This document shows, piece after piece, positions 17,310-24,261 of a stretch of DNA of 44,417 nucleotides; positions within the stretch are counted from its first letter, which is position 1, and the number at the start of each line of letters is the position of its first letter. The position numbers and the translations under genes are program-made. Source of the stretch: Escherichia phage jat. Location of the stretch: the sequence record NC_073076.1. One strand, given 5' to 3'. The notes below the pieces were generated by a model. The model worked only from the letters and a program-made list of their open reading frames with translations, made no database searches and had not been told where the DNA came from.

Positions 17310-19597
17310 AAGACTTCGAACGTCTGTTTCTCGACACCGAGACATTTAGCGGGGTGGACCTGAAGAAAGTGGGGGCGTACGCCTACGCAGAGCACCCAAC
17401 CACCGAGATTATGATTTGCACCTACGCCATCGACGAGGGCCGCGTGCAGACATGGGATTGCACTGAATCCCCCACAATGCCGCGTGAACTGCGCAAGGCG
17501 CTCCGCCATGTTTCCCGCAAGAAAGCAAAAATAGTGATGGCTAACGGCCTCCTGTTTGACCGCCTGGTTATCCGTGAGAAGTGGGGCATCGACCTGCCGG
17601 TAAGCCAGATCGAAGACACCATGATTATGGCATTTCGCCACGCGCTGCCCGGTAGCCTCGATATGCAGTGCCAGGTGCTGGGCGTTGACGCAGAGCACGC
17701 GAAGGATAAGGCAGGCAAGGCGCTGATTAAACGATTCTGTAAGCCCACCCCTAAGACCTACAAAATCCGCCGCTACACACGCGAGACGCACCCCGAAGAA
17801 TGGGCCAAATTCTTGCGCTATGCCGCGCTGGATATTGTTGCCATGCGTGAAGTCTACTGGCGCATACCGGACTGGGGCAACTCACCGAAGGAAGATGAAA
17901 TCCTGCTCATCGACCAGTTGATTAACGACCGCGGCTTCTACGTTGACGTTGACCTGGCGAACGCCGCGATCAAAGCGGTGCAGGCGCATAAGGAAGAATT
18001 GAAGGAAGAAGCCTGGGAGCGGTTTGGCGGTAAGCTGACCGGCAATGACTTCCTGCCAATCCTGCGTGATATTGCGCCAGCATTCACGATACACAACGCG
18101 CAGAAATCCACACTTAACGACCTGCTTGAAGACCCGGACTTCCCCGACGAAGGCAAAGCGCTTATCGAAATGCGCCTCGGTGCGTCATCAACGGCATCGA
18201 CTAAGTACAATCCGCTAGTTAACGGCTTATCCGCAGATGGTCGCCGCCGTGGGTGTCTTCAGTATGGTGGCGCAAAGCGCACGCTGCGCTGGGCTGGTAA
18301 AGGCTTCCAGCCTCAAAACCTGGCACGCGGCGAGTATAGCGACGATCACGAAGGGAAGATTAAGCGCCGCGAAGGCGAGAGCGACGTTGCTTTTTGGGTC
18401 CGGTCGCACATGCTCACCAACGGCATCAATTCCCTGTTACGCGGGACCGCGCACTGGGCGTATGACATATCTAAGCTAACAGCCTCGACCGTTCGCGGGT
18501 GCATTATCCCGGCTAAGGGCAAGAAGTTTGTCGTAGCGGACTACTCTAACGTGGAAGGGCGTGGCCTCGCCTGGATCGCTGGTGAGAAAACCGCGCTAAT
18601 GGTGTTTAGGGCCGGTCGCGATATTTATTGTGAAACTGCCGGTAAGATGTTCGGCCTTGACCCGGAATACATTAAAGCCAACCGCAAAGACCTACGCCAG
18701 ATTGGTAAGGCGTGTGAGTTGGGACTTGGCTATGGCGGCGGCGTGGCTGCGTTCTTGCAGTTCGCTAAAAACCTGGGCCTCGACCTTTACGCGATGGCGG
18801 ACGTCATGAAGGGCACATTCCCCGATCACATTTGGGCAGCGGCTAAACGGGGTTATGAGTACGCCCGCATTAACGAAGCGAAGCGACCGCCGAAGCCGGG
18901 CAAGAAGGACGAGCGCCCGACTTACATACTGACTAAAAACGTTTGGCTGACCTGCGACGCGATCAAACGCATGTGGCGTGAGGCCCACCCGAAGACGGTA
19001 GCCTTTTGGGCCGAGCTTGAGGACGCGGTGTTGTGTGCAATCCGCAATCCTGGCAAAGCGTACTGGGCTGGCGCGAGCGTTCGCCCGGATGGTAAGAAAG
19101 CGCTCAAGATAGTCCGCACGAAGGCGAAGCATGACCCAACCTTCGACGAGGAACGCGACGACCCGAACGCCGCGGGGTGGTGGTTGAAAATTGAGTTGCC
19201 GTCGGGGCGTATTATGAGTTATCCGGGCATTGCGCTGTCTGTCACTACCGAGATCGACGAAGATACTGGCAAGAAACGCACCAGCACCCGCATTAAATAT
19301 CAGGGCGAGAATCAGACGACCCGCCAGTGGGGCTTCCAGTACACCTACGGCGGCAAACTCACGGAAAACATCGTACAGGCGCTGTGTCGCGATATCCTCG
19401 CATGGTCCATGCCTGGCGTTGAAGCTGCGGGATATGAGATCGTACTGTCCGTACACGATGAACTGATAACCGAAGTTCCGGATACTGACGACTACACAAC
19501 CGAGGAGTTGTGCGCGCTGATGTGCGACCTGCCTGTTTGGGCGAAAGGCTTCCCGCTTGCCGCGGAAGGCGACATTATGTACAGGTACAGGAAATAA
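17306..19597 (+). CDS. DNA polymerase, family A, with 3'-5' exonuclease domain
   Basis: 763 aa; exo motif LFLDTETFSG; motif A DYSNVEGR, motif B RQIGKACELGLGYGGG, motif C SVHDEL. Confidence 0.9.
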   Translation: MKDFERLFLDTETFSGVDLKKVGAYAYAEHPTTEIMICTYAIDEGRVQTWDCTESPTMPRELRKALRHVSRKKAKIVMANGLLFDRLVIREKWGIDLPVSQIEDTMIMAFRHALPGSLDMQCQVLGVDAEHAKDKAGKALIKRFCKPTPKTYKIRRYTRETHPEEWAKFLRYAALDIVAMREVYWRIPDWGNSPKEDEILLIDQLINDRGFYVDVDLANAAIKAVQAHKEELKEEAWERFGGKLTGNDFLPILRDIAPAFTIHNAQKSTLNDLLEDPDFPDEGKALIEMRLGASSTASTKYNPLVNGLSADGRRRGCLQYGGAKRTLRWAGKGFQPQNLARGEYSDDHEGKIKRREGESDVAFWVRSHMLTNGINSLLRGTAHWAYDISKLTASTVRGCIIPAKGKKFVVADYSNVEGRGLAWIAGEKTALMVFRAGRDIYCETAGKMFGLDPEYIKANRKDLRQIGKACELGLGYGGGVAAFLQFAKNLGLDLYAMADVMKGTFPDHIWAAAKRGYEYARINEAKRPPKPGKKDERPTYILTKNVWLTCDAIKRMWREAHPKTVAFWAELEDAVLCAIRNPGKAYWAGASVRPDGKKALKIVRTKAKHDPTFDEERDDPNAAGWWLKIELPSGRIMSYPGIALSVTTEIDEDTGKKRTSTRIKYQGENQTTRQWGFQYTYGGKLTENIVQALCRDILAWSMPGVEAAGYEIVLSVHDELITEVPDTDDYTTEELCALMCDLPVWAKGFPLAAEGDIMYRYRK

Positions 19598-19875
19598 TGA
19601 CACCAGAAGGCAAGATTCAAAGTCACTTGATGAGACGGGTGAAAGCCGTCGGCGGATTCTGCCGCAAAGTTGCTTGGGAGGGGCGCGCAGGTGCTCCCGA
19701 TCTGATTATCATCATCAACGGCAGAATAGTTTTCGTCGAAGTGAAGCGCCCCGGAGGCAAACCGAAGCCGCACCAGGTACGAGAACATGAGCGGATGGCC
19801 CGCCGCGGTGCGGACGTTCGCGTCATCGACAACATAGCCGACTGTGATTTATTGGTTGCTGAATTGGTCGCTTAA
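19597..19875 (+). CDS. VRR-NUC domain nuclease
   Basis: 92 aa from ATG overlapping PolA stop (TAATG); PDL...EVK...Q pattern of PD-(D/E)XK VRR-NUC. Confidence 0.65.
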   Translation: MTPEGKIQSHLMRRVKAVGGFCRKVAWEGRAGAPDLIIIINGRIVFVEVKRPGGKPKPHQVREHERMARRGADVRVIDNIADCDLLVAELVA

Positions 19876-19916
19876 CAGTATAGTGAGCAGGTTAGCACTA
19901 ACGAGGATTTTAGAAA

Positions 19917-20089
19917 TGATTGAAGAAAAACGCTGCAGTAATTGCGGTTGCATCAAGCCGTTATCCCAGTTCCACAAATACACCGGTAAGACTGCGCGAA
20001 GTCCAGACGGGTATCGGGCCGAGTGCAAATCATGCCGCAATAAGAAAGAGCGCGAACGGCAGCGCCGCTACCGCGCAGCGCAAGAATAA
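19917..20089 (+). CDS. small Zn-ribbon protein
   Basis: 57 aa; CSNCGC ... CKSCRNK pairs of cysteines, basic C-terminus. Confidence 0.4.
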
Positions 20090-20095
20090 TTAATA

Positions 20096-20120
20096 CGGCG
20101 GGCTTGTCCCGCCATTTTTG
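20096..20120 (+). terminator. rho-independent terminator
   Basis: ggcggg/cccgcc stem with cttgt loop followed by ATTTTTG; stem-loop contains TTGTCCCGCC, the octamer of the iteron arrays. Confidence 0.5.
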
Positions 20121-20132
20121 GGAGACATGACG

Positions 20133-20351
20133 ATGAAAGAACACTACCGACTCACCACACTGGGCGAATGCAAACCAGGCGATCGCGTATGGTTTATCGC
20201 GGGCATGAACTACCCGCTGCCGTTGACGGTGTGCTGGCAAAAATTTAAGAGCTTCCGGGCGACCGGCGTGCACATCGGACACGCCACCAACTACGACGCC
20301 ACAAAAAGGAACTGGAACAGTGAAACCGAAGTCTGGAAAAAGGCGGAATAA
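20133..20351 (+). CDS. hypothetical protein
   Basis: 72 aa from ATG 20133 (GGAGA SD 7 nt upstream); track ORF begins at TTG 20118. Confidence 0.4.
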   Translation: MKEHYRLTTLGECKPGDRVWFIAGMNYPLPLTVCWQKFKSFRATGVHIGHATNYDATKRNWNSETEVWKKAE

Positions 20352-21780
20352 AGAAATGGCACGATTCCGACGCCGCGAATATCAGAAGTTGATAACCGCG
20401 TTCATCCTCAAGCATAAGCGCTGCAATATTTGGGCGACAATGGGGTCGGGTAAAACCGGCGCGACCATGTGGGCGCTGAATAAAATGTTCCAGACCGGCA
20501 TCCTGTCCAACCAGGATGACCGCGTACTGGTGCTGGCCCCGCTGCGCGTTGCGTCCGGTACATGGCCCCCGGAACAGGAGAAATGGCGCTTCCCAGCCTT
20601 GCTGGTAGTAGACGGCACTGGGTCAGAGAAGGACCGCATCGCTGCGCTTGAGAGCGACGCTAACGTGGTTTGTATTAACTATGATGTAGTTGAGTGGCTT
20701 GTCGAGTATTGCGGCGACGAGTGGCCCTTTACGGTCGTGGTTGCCGATGAATCCACTAAGCTGAAAGGATATAGAAGCAAGCAGGGAAGTAAGCGCGCCC
20801 GTGCGCTGGCAGCGATCGCACATAAGCACGTCAAGCGCTGGATTAACCTTACCGGCACACCCGCACCGAACGGGCTGAAAGACCTATGGGGCCAGACGTG
20901 GTTTGTCGACGGCGGCGAACGCCTCGGCAGTAGCTATAAGGCGTTCACGGACCGCTGGTTTATTAGCAAGCCTGTTAAGCCTGGCAGCTTCACGATGCAG
21001 CACGCCCCGCTTAAGAACTCCGAGAAAGAAATACAACAACGTCTGTCAGATGTATCCCTCACCGTTGACGCGGCGGAATACTTCGGGTGCGACAAGCCAA
21101 TCTATACGCCGGTTGTTGTGGACCTGCCGAAGAAAGCGCGCAAGATTTATGACCAGTTTGAAAGCGAGCTATTTGCCGAACTGGAAAGCGGAACAGTGGA
21201 AGCGGCGAACGCGGCATCGAAGACAATTAAGTGCCTTCAGCTTGCATCCGGGGCCGTGTATAAGGTGGACGAAGACGGCGAACGGACCGACGAGTGGGTG
21301 AAGATTCACGACGCGAAGCTGGACGCGCTGGAAAGTATCGTGGAGGAGTTGAACGGTGCGCCGTTGCTCGTTGCGTATCAGTACAAGCATGACCTGGCAC
21401 GTCTTAAGAAGAAATTTCCGCACGGCGTTGCGCTGGGTAAAGGTAAGCAGGGAAATAAGGATATGGAAGCGTGGAACAGAGGCGAGATCCCCATCATGTT
21501 TGCGCACCCGGCATCGGCGGGCCACGGCCTTAACTTGCAGGACGGCGGTCATCACCTGGCAATCTTCTCCGATACCTGGAACTTTGAGCACTTTTCGCAG
21601 ATCGTTGAACGTATCGGGCCGGTTCGCCAGATGCAAGCAGGACACCCCCGTCCGGTATTCGTCTACATTATCCAGGCGCGCGGAACACTGGACGAACTGG
21701 TCGCCGAGCGTCGCGACAGTAAGCGGGATATTCAGGACGACTTGATGGAATACATGAAAGCTAAGAAGGCGCGCAAATGA
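20320..21780 (+). CDS. SNF2-family helicase / ATPase
   Basis: 486 aa; Walker A-like GSGKTG, DEAH-like VVADESTKLK; probable true start ATG 20356 (MARFRRREYQ) after SD. Confidence 0.75.
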   Translation: MKPKSGKRRNKEMARFRRREYQKLITAFILKHKRCNIWATMGSGKTGATMWALNKMFQTGILSNQDDRVLVLAPLRVASGTWPPEQEKWRFPALLVVDGTGSEKDRIAALESDANVVCINYDVVEWLVEYCGDEWPFTVVVADESTKLKGYRSKQGSKRARALAAIAHKHVKRWINLTGTPAPNGLKDLWGQTWFVDGGERLGSSYKAFTDRWFISKPVKPGSFTMQHAPLKNSEKEIQQRLSDVSLTVDAAEYFGCDKPIYTPVVVDLPKKARKIYDQFESELFAELESGTVEAANAASKTIKCLQLASGAVYKVDEDGERTDEWVKIHDAKLDALESIVEELNGAPLLVAYQYKHDLARLKKKFPHGVALGKGKQGNKDMEAWNRGEIPIMFAHPASAGHGLNLQDGGHHLAIFSDTWNFEHFSQIVERIGPVRQMQAGHPRPVFVYIIQARGTLDELVAERRDSKRDIQDDLMEYMKAKKARK

Positions 21781-22472
21781 TAATCTGGTCATTGTTTGAC
21801 GGCAGCGGCTTGATGATTGAGCGTGCTGCCGAGATGGGGCATAAGTGTTATTGCTTCAACTATTCCGAAGCCGATCACGGGTCTTACCTTGACTACCGGA
21901 TTTATGGTCGCGGAATCCGATATCGCAATGAGTTTATAGATATGGACTTTGTGGACCGCGCGATGAATGGCGATTTCGGTACGCCGGATATCATCTATGC
22001 ATTCCCTCCGTGTACGGATCTGGCAGTGAGCGGCGCGCCAGCTTTCCCGCGCAAGCGTGCGAAAGACCCAGCCTTTCAGCTTAAGGCGGTGCGCACCGCG
22101 AAGATCGCCGCTTACCTGGGTGACTTCTTCGAAGTGCCATATATGATTGAGAATCCGCGCAGTGTGCTCTCCACCCAGTGGCGCAAGCCAGACCACTCGT
22201 TTGATCCGTGGGAGTATGGGGGCTATCTGCCGGAGGATGACGTACACCCGCTCTTCCCGGAATACATCAACGCCCGCGATTCATATCCGAAGCGGACCTG
22301 CTTATGGACCGGCAACGGCTTTCGTATGCCAGAGAAAAAGCCTGTATTCGTTGAAAAAGGGTACTCGAAGCAGTATAGTCGCCTCGGAGGCAAATCAGCC
22401 CGCACCAAATTAATCCGGTCGCTCACCCCGCGCGGCTTCGCGATAGCGGTCAATGAGGAAAATTTAAAATGA
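21777..22472 (+). CDS. C5-cytosine methyltransferase-like protein (compact)
   Basis: 231 aa; motif I-like LFDGSG, motif IV-like FPPCTDLAVSGA (Pro-Cys), motif VI-like ENP; ATGA overlap with helicase stop. Confidence 0.45.
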   Translation: MIIWSLFDGSGLMIERAAEMGHKCYCFNYSEADHGSYLDYRIYGRGIRYRNEFIDMDFVDRAMNGDFGTPDIIYAFPPCTDLAVSGAPAFPRKRAKDPAFQLKAVRTAKIAAYLGDFFEVPYMIENPRSVLSTQWRKPDHSFDPWEYGGYLPEDDVHPLFPEYINARDSYPKRTCLWTGNGFRMPEKKPVFVEKGYSKQYSRLGGKSARTKLIRSLTPRGFAIAVNEENLK

Positions 22473-22792
22473 ATACTACATTCGAAGCCATTGATTTTTC
22501 GGTTGCAATGACTAACCAGTTATTCTCCTACGACAGCAAAACCGGCGTCATTCGTCTGAAGTCCACCGGCTGCAAAATTGGCAACCTTAACACTGCCGAT
22601 GGCGGCACGCGCATCGAATGCAACGGCAAAACTCTATCGGGCGCACGCGTGGCGTGGATTATCGCGACCGGCAATACAATTCCTCCAGGCTACGCCGTTG
22701 TGTGCCGCCAGCGAACACCAGGCCACTACGGCAACCGAATCAGCAATCTGTATCTGGTAGACGTTGCACGCGACCCAAATTTTTATTCGTAA
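22469..22792 (+). CDS. hypothetical protein, possibly degenerate HNH-like endonuclease
   Basis: 107 aa; weak resemblance to HNH_3-type homing endonuclease core (ARVAWIIATGNTIPPGYAVV...HYGNRISNL); ATGA overlap with methyltransferase-like gene. Confidence 0.25.
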   Translation: MNTTFEAIDFSVAMTNQLFSYDSKTGVIRLKSTGCKIGNLNTADGGTRIECNGKTLSGARVAWIIATGNTIPPGYAVVCRQRTPGHYGNRISNLYLVDVARDPNFYS

Positions 22793-22827
22793 ATTGGTTG
22801 CATAATTAGATTGGTTGCATTATCTTA

Positions 22828-22858
22828 AGGGTGTCCGGTTGGACGCCTTTTTTTTTTA
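22828..22858 (+). terminator. rho-independent terminator
   Basis: ggtgtcc/ggacgcc stem (one G-U) with ggtt loop followed by T10. Confidence 0.55.
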
Positions 22859-22876
22859 ATACCGGGAGACAACACG

Positions 22877-23119
22877 ATGAAATCATTATTTTTCGACTAC
22901 GACGGCGACCTTCGATTTTGGGTGATACTCACCCTCATGTTTGCCGTTTGTATTTGCGTTCCTACCGCTGCTATTTACTACACGGAACGCTACGGGTGCA
23001 AGACCGTGTACCCTGAGCAAACAGGCCGTAACACACAATGGCGATACGGTGTCTGCTGGGTTGAAATGGATGGCAAATTGATTCCTCGCGATGAGATTCG
23101 CACAACGGAGATTAAATAA
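22877..23119 (+). CDS. small membrane protein, hypothetical
   Basis: 80 aa; hydrophobic helix WVILTLMFAVCICVPTAAIYY. Confidence 0.4.
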   Translation: MKSLFFDYDGDLRFWVILTLMFAVCICVPTAAIYYTERYGCKTVYPEQTGRNTQWRYGVCWVEMDGKLIPRDEIRTTEIK

Positions 23120-23584
23120 ATGAAAATTTTACAAGAAGAGAAAAATTACTGGGCTGCGCAATGCCTCGAAGCCCGCGAACAGGCCGAACGTGCGAACGCG
23201 CTGGCAGATACCTACCTGTCAAGCTATGAAACGGAAGAAAAGCGCCGCATGGAGTTAGAGGAGCGCTTCGAACTGCTTTTCGAATTGATGGGGATTATGC
23301 AGCGCACCGGATATACAACCAGCGTTGCACTAAACCGCGTCACGGCTGATGCGTTGCGGGAGCACTGTAAACGTGCGGAGGAGTACGTGCGCCCGAAGGG
23401 CCGCCAGTCTTCGATCGCCCGGAAAGACCTTGTGCTTATGGCGTGGCGCAACCCTACAAACGGCAGCTTCTACCCGGACGCGCGCCCGCTTAGCGCCGAG
23501 GAATCAAAGCGCGTGCAGCGCGTCATCAAAAAAGGCGATAAGATCCCACTTTATGCGATAGACACCGACCATGACGAAGAATGA
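23120..23584 (+). CDS. hypothetical protein
   Basis: 154 aa, charged, coiled-coil-like N-terminus. Confidence 0.45.
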   Translation: MKILQEEKNYWAAQCLEAREQAERANALADTYLSSYETEEKRRMELEERFELLFELMGIMQRTGYTTSVALNRVTADALREHCKRAEEYVRPKGRQSSIARKDLVLMAWRNPTNGSFYPDARPLSAEESKRVQRVIKKGDKIPLYAIDTDHDEE

Positions 23585-24056
23585 GCAGAAAGATAGCTGG
23601 CGCACACCGCCAGCTTTATTTAAACCGCTTCGTCGGAAGTACCGATTCCGTTACGATATGGCGGCGAGCGACGCCAACCACCTGCTACCGCGTTACTTCA
23701 CGGCAGAGCACAGCGCGCTTGATGTGGACTGGGCAGAGTTGAAAGGGTGGAAGTGGTGCAATCCGCCGTATTCCGACCCGCTGCCGTGGGTGGAATGCGC
23801 AGCGCACGGACGCCGGACTGTCATGCTACTGAACCAGGACACGTCGACGAAGTGGGCGAAGCTGGCCCGGAAGACTGCAAACCTGATAATTCTTCTGGAC
23901 TGGCGGATTAGATTCATTCACGCCGTCACCGGCGAAGTCGGGCCGAGCAATAACAAGTGCCAGCAATTGATAATCTTTGACGAAGCGCCGCCAATCGGCA
24001 GCGCACGAATTGAAATAATGAGCGAAGGAGAACTCCTTGAATATCTTAATCGTTGA
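23571..24056 (+). CDS. DNA N6-adenine methyltransferase (phage Dam-type)
   Basis: 161 aa; SWRTPPALF...DMAASDANHL...WCNPPYS signature of phage Dam methyltransferases. Confidence 0.8.
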   Translation: MTKNEQKDSWRTPPALFKPLRRKYRFRYDMAASDANHLLPRYFTAEHSALDVDWAELKGWKWCNPPYSDPLPWVECAAHGRRTVMLLNQDTSTKWAKLARKTANLIILLDWRIRFIHAVTGEVGPSNNKCQQLIIFDEAPPIGSARIEIMSEGELLEYLNR

Positions 24057-24261
24057 CCGCGACCCTGCGGTAGTAGACCGAATGCAAAGAGACTATAACA
24101 TAGACCCGCGCCGCGATCGTGTGAAGCGAGTGTCACGTCCAGAATATATCCTGGGTATGGACCTCACCGGCTGGCTTGTCATAACCGCAAATTGGCATCT
24201 TGTGTGTAACAAGTTTTCCGCCAGAGTTGTTCGTTCGGATTTGGTTGAGGAATTAAAATGA
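24037..24261 (+). CDS. hypothetical protein
   Basis: 74 aa ORF overlapping neighbours at both ends. Confidence 0.35.
   Translation: MNILIVDRDPAVVDRMQRDYNIDPRRDRVKRVSRPEYILGMDLTGWLVITANWHLVCNKFSARVVRSDLVEELK

Follow-up and report, generated by a model that had tools for sequence, protein, structure and literature searches.

The genome of Escherichia phage jat (NC_073076.1; 44,417 nucleotides, here called the window, that is, the whole stretch of DNA analysed) carries, at 21777-22472, an open reading frame (ORF) of 231 aa that very probably encodes an active S-adenosylmethionine (SAM)-dependent DNA cytosine-C5 methyltransferase of a compact, 'Dcm-like' phage family, phrog_757. All features of the window described here lie on the plus strand. 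The window is the complete or nearly complete genome of a Dhillonvirus (HK578-like coliphage), and its region 19500-24100 shows 93-95% nucleotide identity to phages Maverick, CS16 and UHP65, with more than 140 records spanning it. A preliminary description of this DNA had suggested that the gene may encode a minimal C5-cytosine methyltransferase, and this suggestion is supported by the fold of the protein, by the conservation of its motifs and by its homology to the Dcm enzyme of phage KarlJaspers. The gene is already known and annotated, the family is experimentally anchored and the novelty is low: the Dhillonvirus copy is annotated in BASEL as 'Dcm-like C5 cytosine methyltransferase', and a C5-cytosine methylase label is already found in more than 100 deposited Dhillonvirus genomes. 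The gain for annotation is therefore small, as the gene was already labelled and a member of its family is known as a trigger of the retron Ec86; the label rests on a remote similarity that is missed by Pfam and NCBIfam, and it is made firmer by the evidence from fold and homology given here.

The experimental anchor is the study of Wang et al., who isolated escapers of the retron Ec86 (Eco1) in phage K42, a KarlJaspers-like member of the Drexlerviridae (10.1101/2023.08.16.553469). In all four K42 escapers, the lesions lay within a 711-bp 'dcm' gene or just upstream of it, and expression of this gene was toxic only when the retron was present (10.1101/2023.08.16.553469). By mass spectrometry coupled to liquid chromatography (LC-MS), the 5-methylcytosine (5mC) content of the multicopy single-stranded DNA (msDNA) of the retron was high with the wild-type K42 gene and not with a C82A/E128A/K175A/K176A mutant, K175 and K176 having been chosen as substrate-binding residues, and the product matched the 5mC standard (10.1101/2023.08.16.553469). 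KarlJaspers (Bas06, MZ501090) has an orthologue of the K42 gene, also of 711 bp and annotated as 'Dcm-like C5 cytosine methyltransferase', and the window protein shares 54% identity with its product over the full length (231 of 236 aa, E=3e-87). Residues C82, E128, K175 and K176 of the K42 enzyme correspond to C79, E125, K172 and R173 of the window protein, so that the cysteine, the glutamate and the first lysine are identical, whereas the equivalent of K176 is an arginine in the window and a leucine in many other Dhillonviruses. The full-length identity and the matching active site together place the window gene in a family of which one member is demonstrated to form 5mC. For the K42 numbering, the sequence P0023 was considered as the KarlJaspers copy and rejected as Sasha-like, and the true gene was taken from the KarlJaspers accession. 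The retron study was reportedly published later in Cell Rep (2024). Both enzymes are orphan methyltransferases, each from a small siphovirus in which a Dam-type methyltransferase is encoded as well; in KarlJaspers and K42, however, the gene does not overlap a helicase gene, as it does in the window.

The window protein matches phrog_757 ('DNA methyltransferase') with an E-value of 6e-83 over residues 1-229. Its homologues number 2,902 in a collection of 5.8 billion proteins, and the family occurs in 1,510 phage records of very different lineages, among them Dhillonvirus, the Drexlerviridae (including Tls and Webervirus), Jerseyvirus, Vequintavirinae such as rV5 and PVP-SE1, and 9NA, as well as large myoviruses and phages of Vibrio, Roseobacter and Pectobacterium. 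An exhaustive HMMER scan gave 855 clusters at 50% identity, the full-length representatives of which are nearly all 210-260 aa long, so that compactness is a property of the family and not the result of a truncation. A Pfam scan of the longer relatives (290-450 aa) for fused domains gave none that was informative. To our knowledge, this family of about 230 aa is among the smallest C5-methyltransferases.

The motifs on which the preliminary description was based (LFDGSG, the Pro-Cys motif FPPCTD, and ENP) are all present and are conserved in two alignments, one of 38 close homologues (57-84% identity) and one of 70 diverse sequences (mean column identity 35%). Motif I, the SAM-binding FxGxG, is F7-D-G-S-G11 (21795-21809); motif IV, P77-P-C79-T-D81, holds the predicted catalytic nucleophile Cys79 (22005-22019); and motif VI, E125-N-P127, is a variant of ENV in which proline replaces valine (22149-22157). 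F7, G9, S10, G11, P77, P78, C79, T80, E125, N126 and P127 are invariant in the close homologues, and in the diverse alignment C79, E125 and P127 are invariant while P77, T80 and N126 are kept in at least 90% of the sequences. Conservation of FxGSG, PPC and ENP across the family implies that these motifs are not chance matches. Their order is that of Dcm/M.HhaI-type enzymes and their spacing is comparable, as had been proposed. In profile alignments, motif I is in register with motif I of M.HaeIII, DNMT2, Dcm and DNMT3A, the PC of motif IV with that of M.HaeIII, DNMT2 and DNMT3A, and ENP is aligned with the ENV of Dcm and DNMT3A. Following the C5-methyltransferase paradigm, motif I, probably together with a conserved C-terminal block, would bind SAM, the target cytosine would be flipped out, Cys79 would attack C6, Glu125 would protonate N3 and the methyl group would be transferred to C5. 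As a side observation, in two more distant members, 9NA (L007, 2995-3681) and Klebsiella phage GH-K3 (L009, 2007-2726), motif IV contains P-D-C or P-S-C instead of P-P-C, and the variable loop reads FFWGW/FFWAW; these variants show that there are sub-families, the specificity of which may differ.

Comparison with C5-methyltransferases by hidden Markov model (HMM) and by structure, which the preliminary description had proposed as a check, gave a class I SAM-methyltransferase Rossmann fold whose nearest structural relatives are C5-methyltransferases. The catalytic core most resembles DNMT3A/3B (PDB 6u8p, 5yx2 and 2qrv), at about 14% identity to the window protein, and the family profile matched the human DNMT3A catalytic domain, whose sequence was confirmed to be identical to 5yx2_A, with E=4e-5 over motifs I-IV. 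By contrast, DNMT3 is about 55 residues longer and has a true target-recognition domain (TRD) loop, a motif IX and, within motif VIII, an RxR; its target is CpG, and it is active as an oligomer that includes DNMT3L. The C-terminal halves of the two groups cannot be aligned by sequence. The likeness to DNMT3 may be a convergent minimisation that does not require close ancestry. With E. coli Dcm/M.EcoRII-type and M.HhaI-type enzymes (PF00145) the window protein shares the fold and the order of motifs I, IV and VI, and their reaction product, 5mC, is also that of the assayed K42 homologue; it differs from them in its length (231 aa, against 472 aa for Dcm and 327 aa for M.HhaI), in the lack of a PF00145 match and of a canonical TRD, and in having K-x-T for QxRxR. 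We know of no solved structure for the compact family.

Several observations count against the assignment of an active C5-methyltransferase, and others, given further on with role and specificity, against the wider reading that is built on it. The window protein gave no match at E<=1 to PF00145 or any other Pfam family and none in NCBIfam; a phmmer search of PDB returned only a spurious kinase match, and weak PF00145 matches were found in 14 of the 70 relatives (best 6e-4). Searched against PDB sequences, the family profile reached M.HaeIII (E=0.085) and DNMT2 (E=0.22) in register but not significantly, and its hhalign comparison with E. coli Dcm gave E=0.19. When the C-terminal half was compared with DNMT3A by hhalign, only ENP and ENV were aligned (E=0.11), motifs IX and X remaining unaligned. 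The demonstration of 5mC formation is limited to the K42 homologue. Finally, the arginines of motif VIII are important in M.HhaI, and the family does not have the QxRxR pattern: at the strand that we equate with motif VIII (K172-R-T174-C-L-W177, 22290-22307) it reads P-K172-(K/R/L)-T174-C-L-W177, with the consensus PKKTCLW and no conserved arginine pair, K172, T174 and W177 being invariant in the family alignments. Judged from the alignment, K172 and T174 replace the arginines, the loss of which may be made good by another residue such as the invariant R136.

The absence of these arginines and of a PF00145 match would also be expected if the fold were catalytically dead, that is, a DNMT3L-like regulatory or DNA-binding subunit which might, for example, modulate the adjacent helicase. 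We consider this very improbable, as even very diverged members all retain Cys79, Glu125 and the SAM-binding glycines, which is unexpected in a pseudoenzyme, and as the 54%-identical homologue, which has the same K-x-T variant, makes 5mC in vivo whereas its active-site mutant does not. Another alternative is an RNA (tRNA) cytosine-C5 methyltransferase of the DNMT2 type in place of a DNA enzyme. This is the least credible of the alternatives considered, since DNA enzymes score higher (DNMT3B 14.0, M.HhaI 11.7), it is the DNA portion of msDNA that the homologue methylates, and the gene belongs to a DNA replication module, close to a gene for a Dam-type DNA methyltransferase.

The preliminary description had also mentioned a different role, such as a step in base modification. 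In this case the enzyme would transfer another group, for example by carboxymethylation, or would make a 5mC precursor to be later oxidised or glycosylated. No TET/JBP-type oxygenase, glycosyltransferase, CmoA-like protein or hydroxymethylase is annotated in one complete Dhillonvirus genome, nor is any found among the neighbouring ORFs of the window, and the product of the K42 homologue is plain 5mC, matching the standard by LC-MS. The match to 8yf3 is one ordinary C5-methyltransferase-fold match among many. We therefore dropped the base-modification step, which now appears highly unlikely, and retain the reading of an active DNA C5-methyltransferase.

It had been noted that the protein appears too short for a normal TRD together with motifs IX and X. 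The first part of this statement is confirmed: W177 and the conserved C-terminal block are only about 25 residues apart, of which about 18 make up a hypervariable loop (residues ~186-203, 22332-22385), so that a sizeable TRD is missing. This loop has the highest entropy of the C-terminal half, accepts up to about 15 extra residues after positions 194-196, and is confidently modelled (predicted local distance difference test, pLDDT, >=90). As it sits at the topological position of the TRD, we read it as a candidate minimal target-recognition element, which presumably reads the DNA sequence. The doubt about motifs IX and X is settled only in part. Motif IX is probably absent; the conserved block L203-GGKSARTKLIRSLTPR-G220 (22383-22436; family pattern LGGKxxxTKxIRSLTPRG), which is followed by a terminal helix, is the probable equivalent of motif X, closing the SAM pocket, although sequence alignment gave no proof of this. 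Likenesses seen by eye, between 'KRTCLWTGN' and 'RARYFWGN' and between 'IRSLTPRG' and 'GRSWSVPV' of DNMT3A, are unproven leads to which hhalign gave no backing.

Upstream of the methyltransferase gene lies a gene for a SNF2-family helicase of 486 aa (20320-21780; PF00176 SNF2-rel_dom 1.5e-11, phrog_62 2.1e-156), and downstream of it an HNH_3-like ORF of 107 aa (22469-22792), the coordinates of all three being exactly those given in the preliminary description. The stop codon (TGA) of the helicase gene and the ATG of the methyltransferase gene share a 4-nt ATGA overlap (...cgcaaATGAtaatc... at 21777-21780), and so do the stop of the latter and the start of the 107-aa ORF (...ttaaaATGAatact... 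at 22469-22472); both junctions, already described, are read directly in the sequence and are also found in the relatives Oekolampad and SECphi4. Shine-Dalgarno-like motifs, GAAGG and GAGGA, are located 6-9 nt 5' of these two starts. A consensus scan found a terminator-like hairpin with 6 G-C pairs at 20097-20113, probably the end of the upstream unit and the 5' boundary of the helicase-methyltransferase-HNH unit, and a strong intrinsic-terminator-like hairpin, with a 10-bp stem followed by 10 T, at 22827-22860, which can be read in the sequence and would end the unit. Between the two hairpins are found a 77-aa ORF, the helicase gene, the 231-aa ORF and the 107-aa ORF. The methyltransferase would thus be translated as the middle cistron of a terminator-bracketed unit, that is, alongside replication genes. 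The top sigma-70-like match of the scanned 8.5-kb region (TTGAAA-17-TATAGT, 10/12, 22351-22379) falls inside the 3' end of the methyltransferase gene, 90 nt 5' of the HNH-like ORF, of which it could allow independent expression; the total of such sites in the scanned region is no higher than the shuffled expectation.

The 'weak HNH-like features' attributed earlier to the 107-aa ORF describe it accurately, since it scores 13.2 bits against Pfam HNH_3, below the cut-off of 24.8, and matches phrog_99 ('HNH endonuclease') with 2e-16. It shows the 'ARVAWI...GNxIPPG...H..GN...NL' scaffold of HNH_3/NUMOD4-type phage homing endonucleases (phrog_99), and a possible H86/N93/N104 motif can be read from its sequence. 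The AlphaFold2 model, built from 6 near-identical sequences, has a pLDDT of 44.5 and is too poor to be judged. Unlike those homing endonucleases, which are sporadic and mobile, the 107-aa protein has no extra DNA-binding domain and occupies one fixed locus in essentially all Dhillonviruses: at 80% identity or more it is found in about 156 Dhillonvirus records, always directly after the methyltransferase gene, and its relatives amount to only 5 protein clusters in the collection of 5.8 billion proteins. This fixed place in Dhillonvirus and near-absence elsewhere indicate a genus-specific core gene, neither a mobile homing endonuclease nor a general partner of the methyltransferase.

The tight coupling to the helicase gene, like an uncultured-phage protein of 1,397 aa which bears a helicase annotation and contains the compact methyltransferase fold (BFVD A0A6J5SE15), could be taken in favour of a dead, helicase-modulating subunit. 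The linkage is, however, not family-wide. Jerseyvirus (Salmonella phage LP31, L006 2998-5098) has the same module of PolA, VRR-NUC, methyltransferase and SNF2 helicase, with a helicase 67% identical to that of the window, but in the reverse order, the methyltransferase gene lying upstream of and overlapping the helicase gene (compare 20320-22472 in the window). The helicases found near the methyltransferase gene in Drexlerviridae and Vequintavirinae are unrelated to that of the window, and 9NA has no helicase near its methyltransferase gene. A family-wide tie between the two proteins was consequently rejected, and we treat the coupling as co-expression with a replication module, not as a mechanistic partnership.

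Two other genes of the region fit an anti-restriction theme. A small Dam-type N6-adenine methyltransferase of 161 aa (23571-24056, PF05869 5.9e-36) is encoded about 1.1 kb from the C5 enzyme, which makes two small orphan methyltransferases in the window. A Cys-rich ORF (CxxC...CxxC) labelled 'Lar-like restriction alleviation protein' (19844-20089, phrog_5558 8.6e-18) adjoins the VRR-NUC gene just 5' of the helicase unit; to judge by its similarity it may be another anti-restriction gene of the module, and it also matches endonuclease VII-like zinc ribbons. The start of the Dam-type gene is overlapped over 14 nt by a 154-aa ORF labelled 'DNA ligase' (23120-23584, phrog_10530 1e-94). With 154 aa it is far too small for a ligase and it has no Pfam domain, so that this label is doubtful and probably a propagated error.

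In hosts without matching methylation, the C5-methyltransferase would methylate replicating phage DNA and so allow escape from cytosine-sensitive restriction, and the same 5mC activity could expose the phage to defences that sense methylation, for example retron Ec86/Eco1. Two observations argue against a protective role. The BASEL study found no simple link between phage methyltransferase genes and resistance to restriction, and the gene appears to be dispensable in nature, as natural knock-outs occur in otherwise intact Dhillonvirus genomes. In a 44.7-kb wastewater contig (L004; two further contigs share the truncated protein), a 10-bp slip deletion between GCGAT repeats, equivalent to 21965-21974 of the window, causes a frameshift before motif IV (L004:2762-3447, L005:3001-3447), and other assemblies (P0004, P0012, P0121 and P0196) have lost the PPC or ENP motifs through in-frame deletions between short repeats. 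Those deletions that come from Logan assemblies could be artefacts; the knock-out alleles may reflect either selection by methylation-sensing defences or assembly error in the Logan contigs. An active C5 DNA methyltransferase selected for a role other than restriction protection, such as the marking of replicated or packaged DNA, the regulation of phage genes or the manipulation of the host, would agree with this dispensability, with the co-transcription with replication genes, with the continued restriction sensitivity of the Dhillonvirus phages in BASEL, and with the fact that E. coli K-12 hosts already methylate CCWGG, which makes a copy of Dcm redundant there. Orphan phage methyltransferases are, on the other hand, generally read as anti-restriction genes, and the module also has the Dam-type methyltransferase and the Lar-like ORF; we regard another role as unlikely, though deserving more attention than the alternatives discussed above, and keep restriction protection as the role that we infer.

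The name 'Dcm-type' used in the preliminary description is appropriate for the chemistry, the homologue making 5mC, and not for a CCWGG specificity, which is assumed in the literature. Our literature searches found no mapped specificity for the compact family, and Wang et al. took CCWGG by analogy with host Dcm, supporting it by the loss of defence when the CCTGG of the msDNA stem was altered (10.1101/2023.08.16.553469). Four lines of evidence make it less safe simply to extend CCWGG to the window enzyme. The first concerns the host. The strain MG1655 is dcm+. It was the strain used in those experiments, and the msDNA nevertheless had a low 5mC content when the phage enzyme was absent (10.1101/2023.08.16.553469). 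Second, when the Ec86 msd is folded as DNA, CCTGG pairs with CAAGG and leaves the fourth base (G) unpaired, so that the sole demonstrated substrate of the family is an imperfect half-site and not a canonical duplex CCWGG. The msd sequence that we used (86 nt) is the one we take to be that of Ec86, and a locus with 100% identity to it is present in 48 E. coli genomes, that of BLR(DE3) among them. Third, the window and KarlJaspers enzymes differ precisely in the hypervariable loop ('GYSxQ' in the window, 'DNPGW' in KarlJaspers; more fully, 'VEKGYSKQYSR' against 'KEDDKDNPGWAKT'), and their specificity may differ.

The fourth line is an allele of the model Dhillonvirus SECphi4 (L010, 1809-2504), a full-length methyltransferase 97% identical to that of the window but with R219C, at a position invariant in close homologues, and R173L. 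SECphi4 belonged to the 12-phage panel of the original retron study, in which Ec86 blocked only one phage of the 12; the explanation is either a weakened allele or a Dhillonvirus enzyme that fails to trigger Ec86. A comparison of loop flavours through the blocked phage was considered and rejected: this phage is presumably T5, and as positions 1-87,000 of T5 contain no member of the family by tblastn or family HMM, it is unusable for the purpose. Taken together, CCWGG is a reasonable guess as the target of the window enzyme, with a chance that we put at somewhat below even. We also propose, as a speculation more doubtful than this guess, that the compact family represents a minimal sequence-reading C5-methyltransferase, with a DNMT3-like core, a loop of 15-30 residues in place of a TRD and Lys/Thr in place of the motif VIII arginines, in which the specificity would vary with the flavour of the loop and might be relaxed or of the half-site kind, the GYSxQ enzyme of Dhillonvirus having a target other than the CCWGG that is assumed for the DNPGW enzyme of K42.

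Counts of palindromes in the whole window showed strong biases, with observed against expected numbers of 0 against 12.1 for CCWWGG, 18 against 50.7 for CTAG, 165 against 242 for GGCC and 158 against 208 for GATC. The total lack of CCWWGG points to past selection by a restriction system of the StyI type. CCWGG itself (151 observed, 160.6 expected) is neither avoided nor enriched and is uninformative.

If the minimal-loop proposal were true, it would account for the methylation of an imperfect msDNA site by the phage enzyme and apparently not by host Dcm, and the recurrent natural knock-outs would be the outcome of pressure from defences that sense methylation. The compact family is a tractable model of minimal DNA-target reading and a possible source of a compact tool enzyme. 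Dhillonvirus phages are often considered for phage therapy, and as the methyltransferase activity can both protect a phage from restriction and betray it to methylation-sensing defences, the presence of the gene, its loss and the variants of its loop may help to predict host range.

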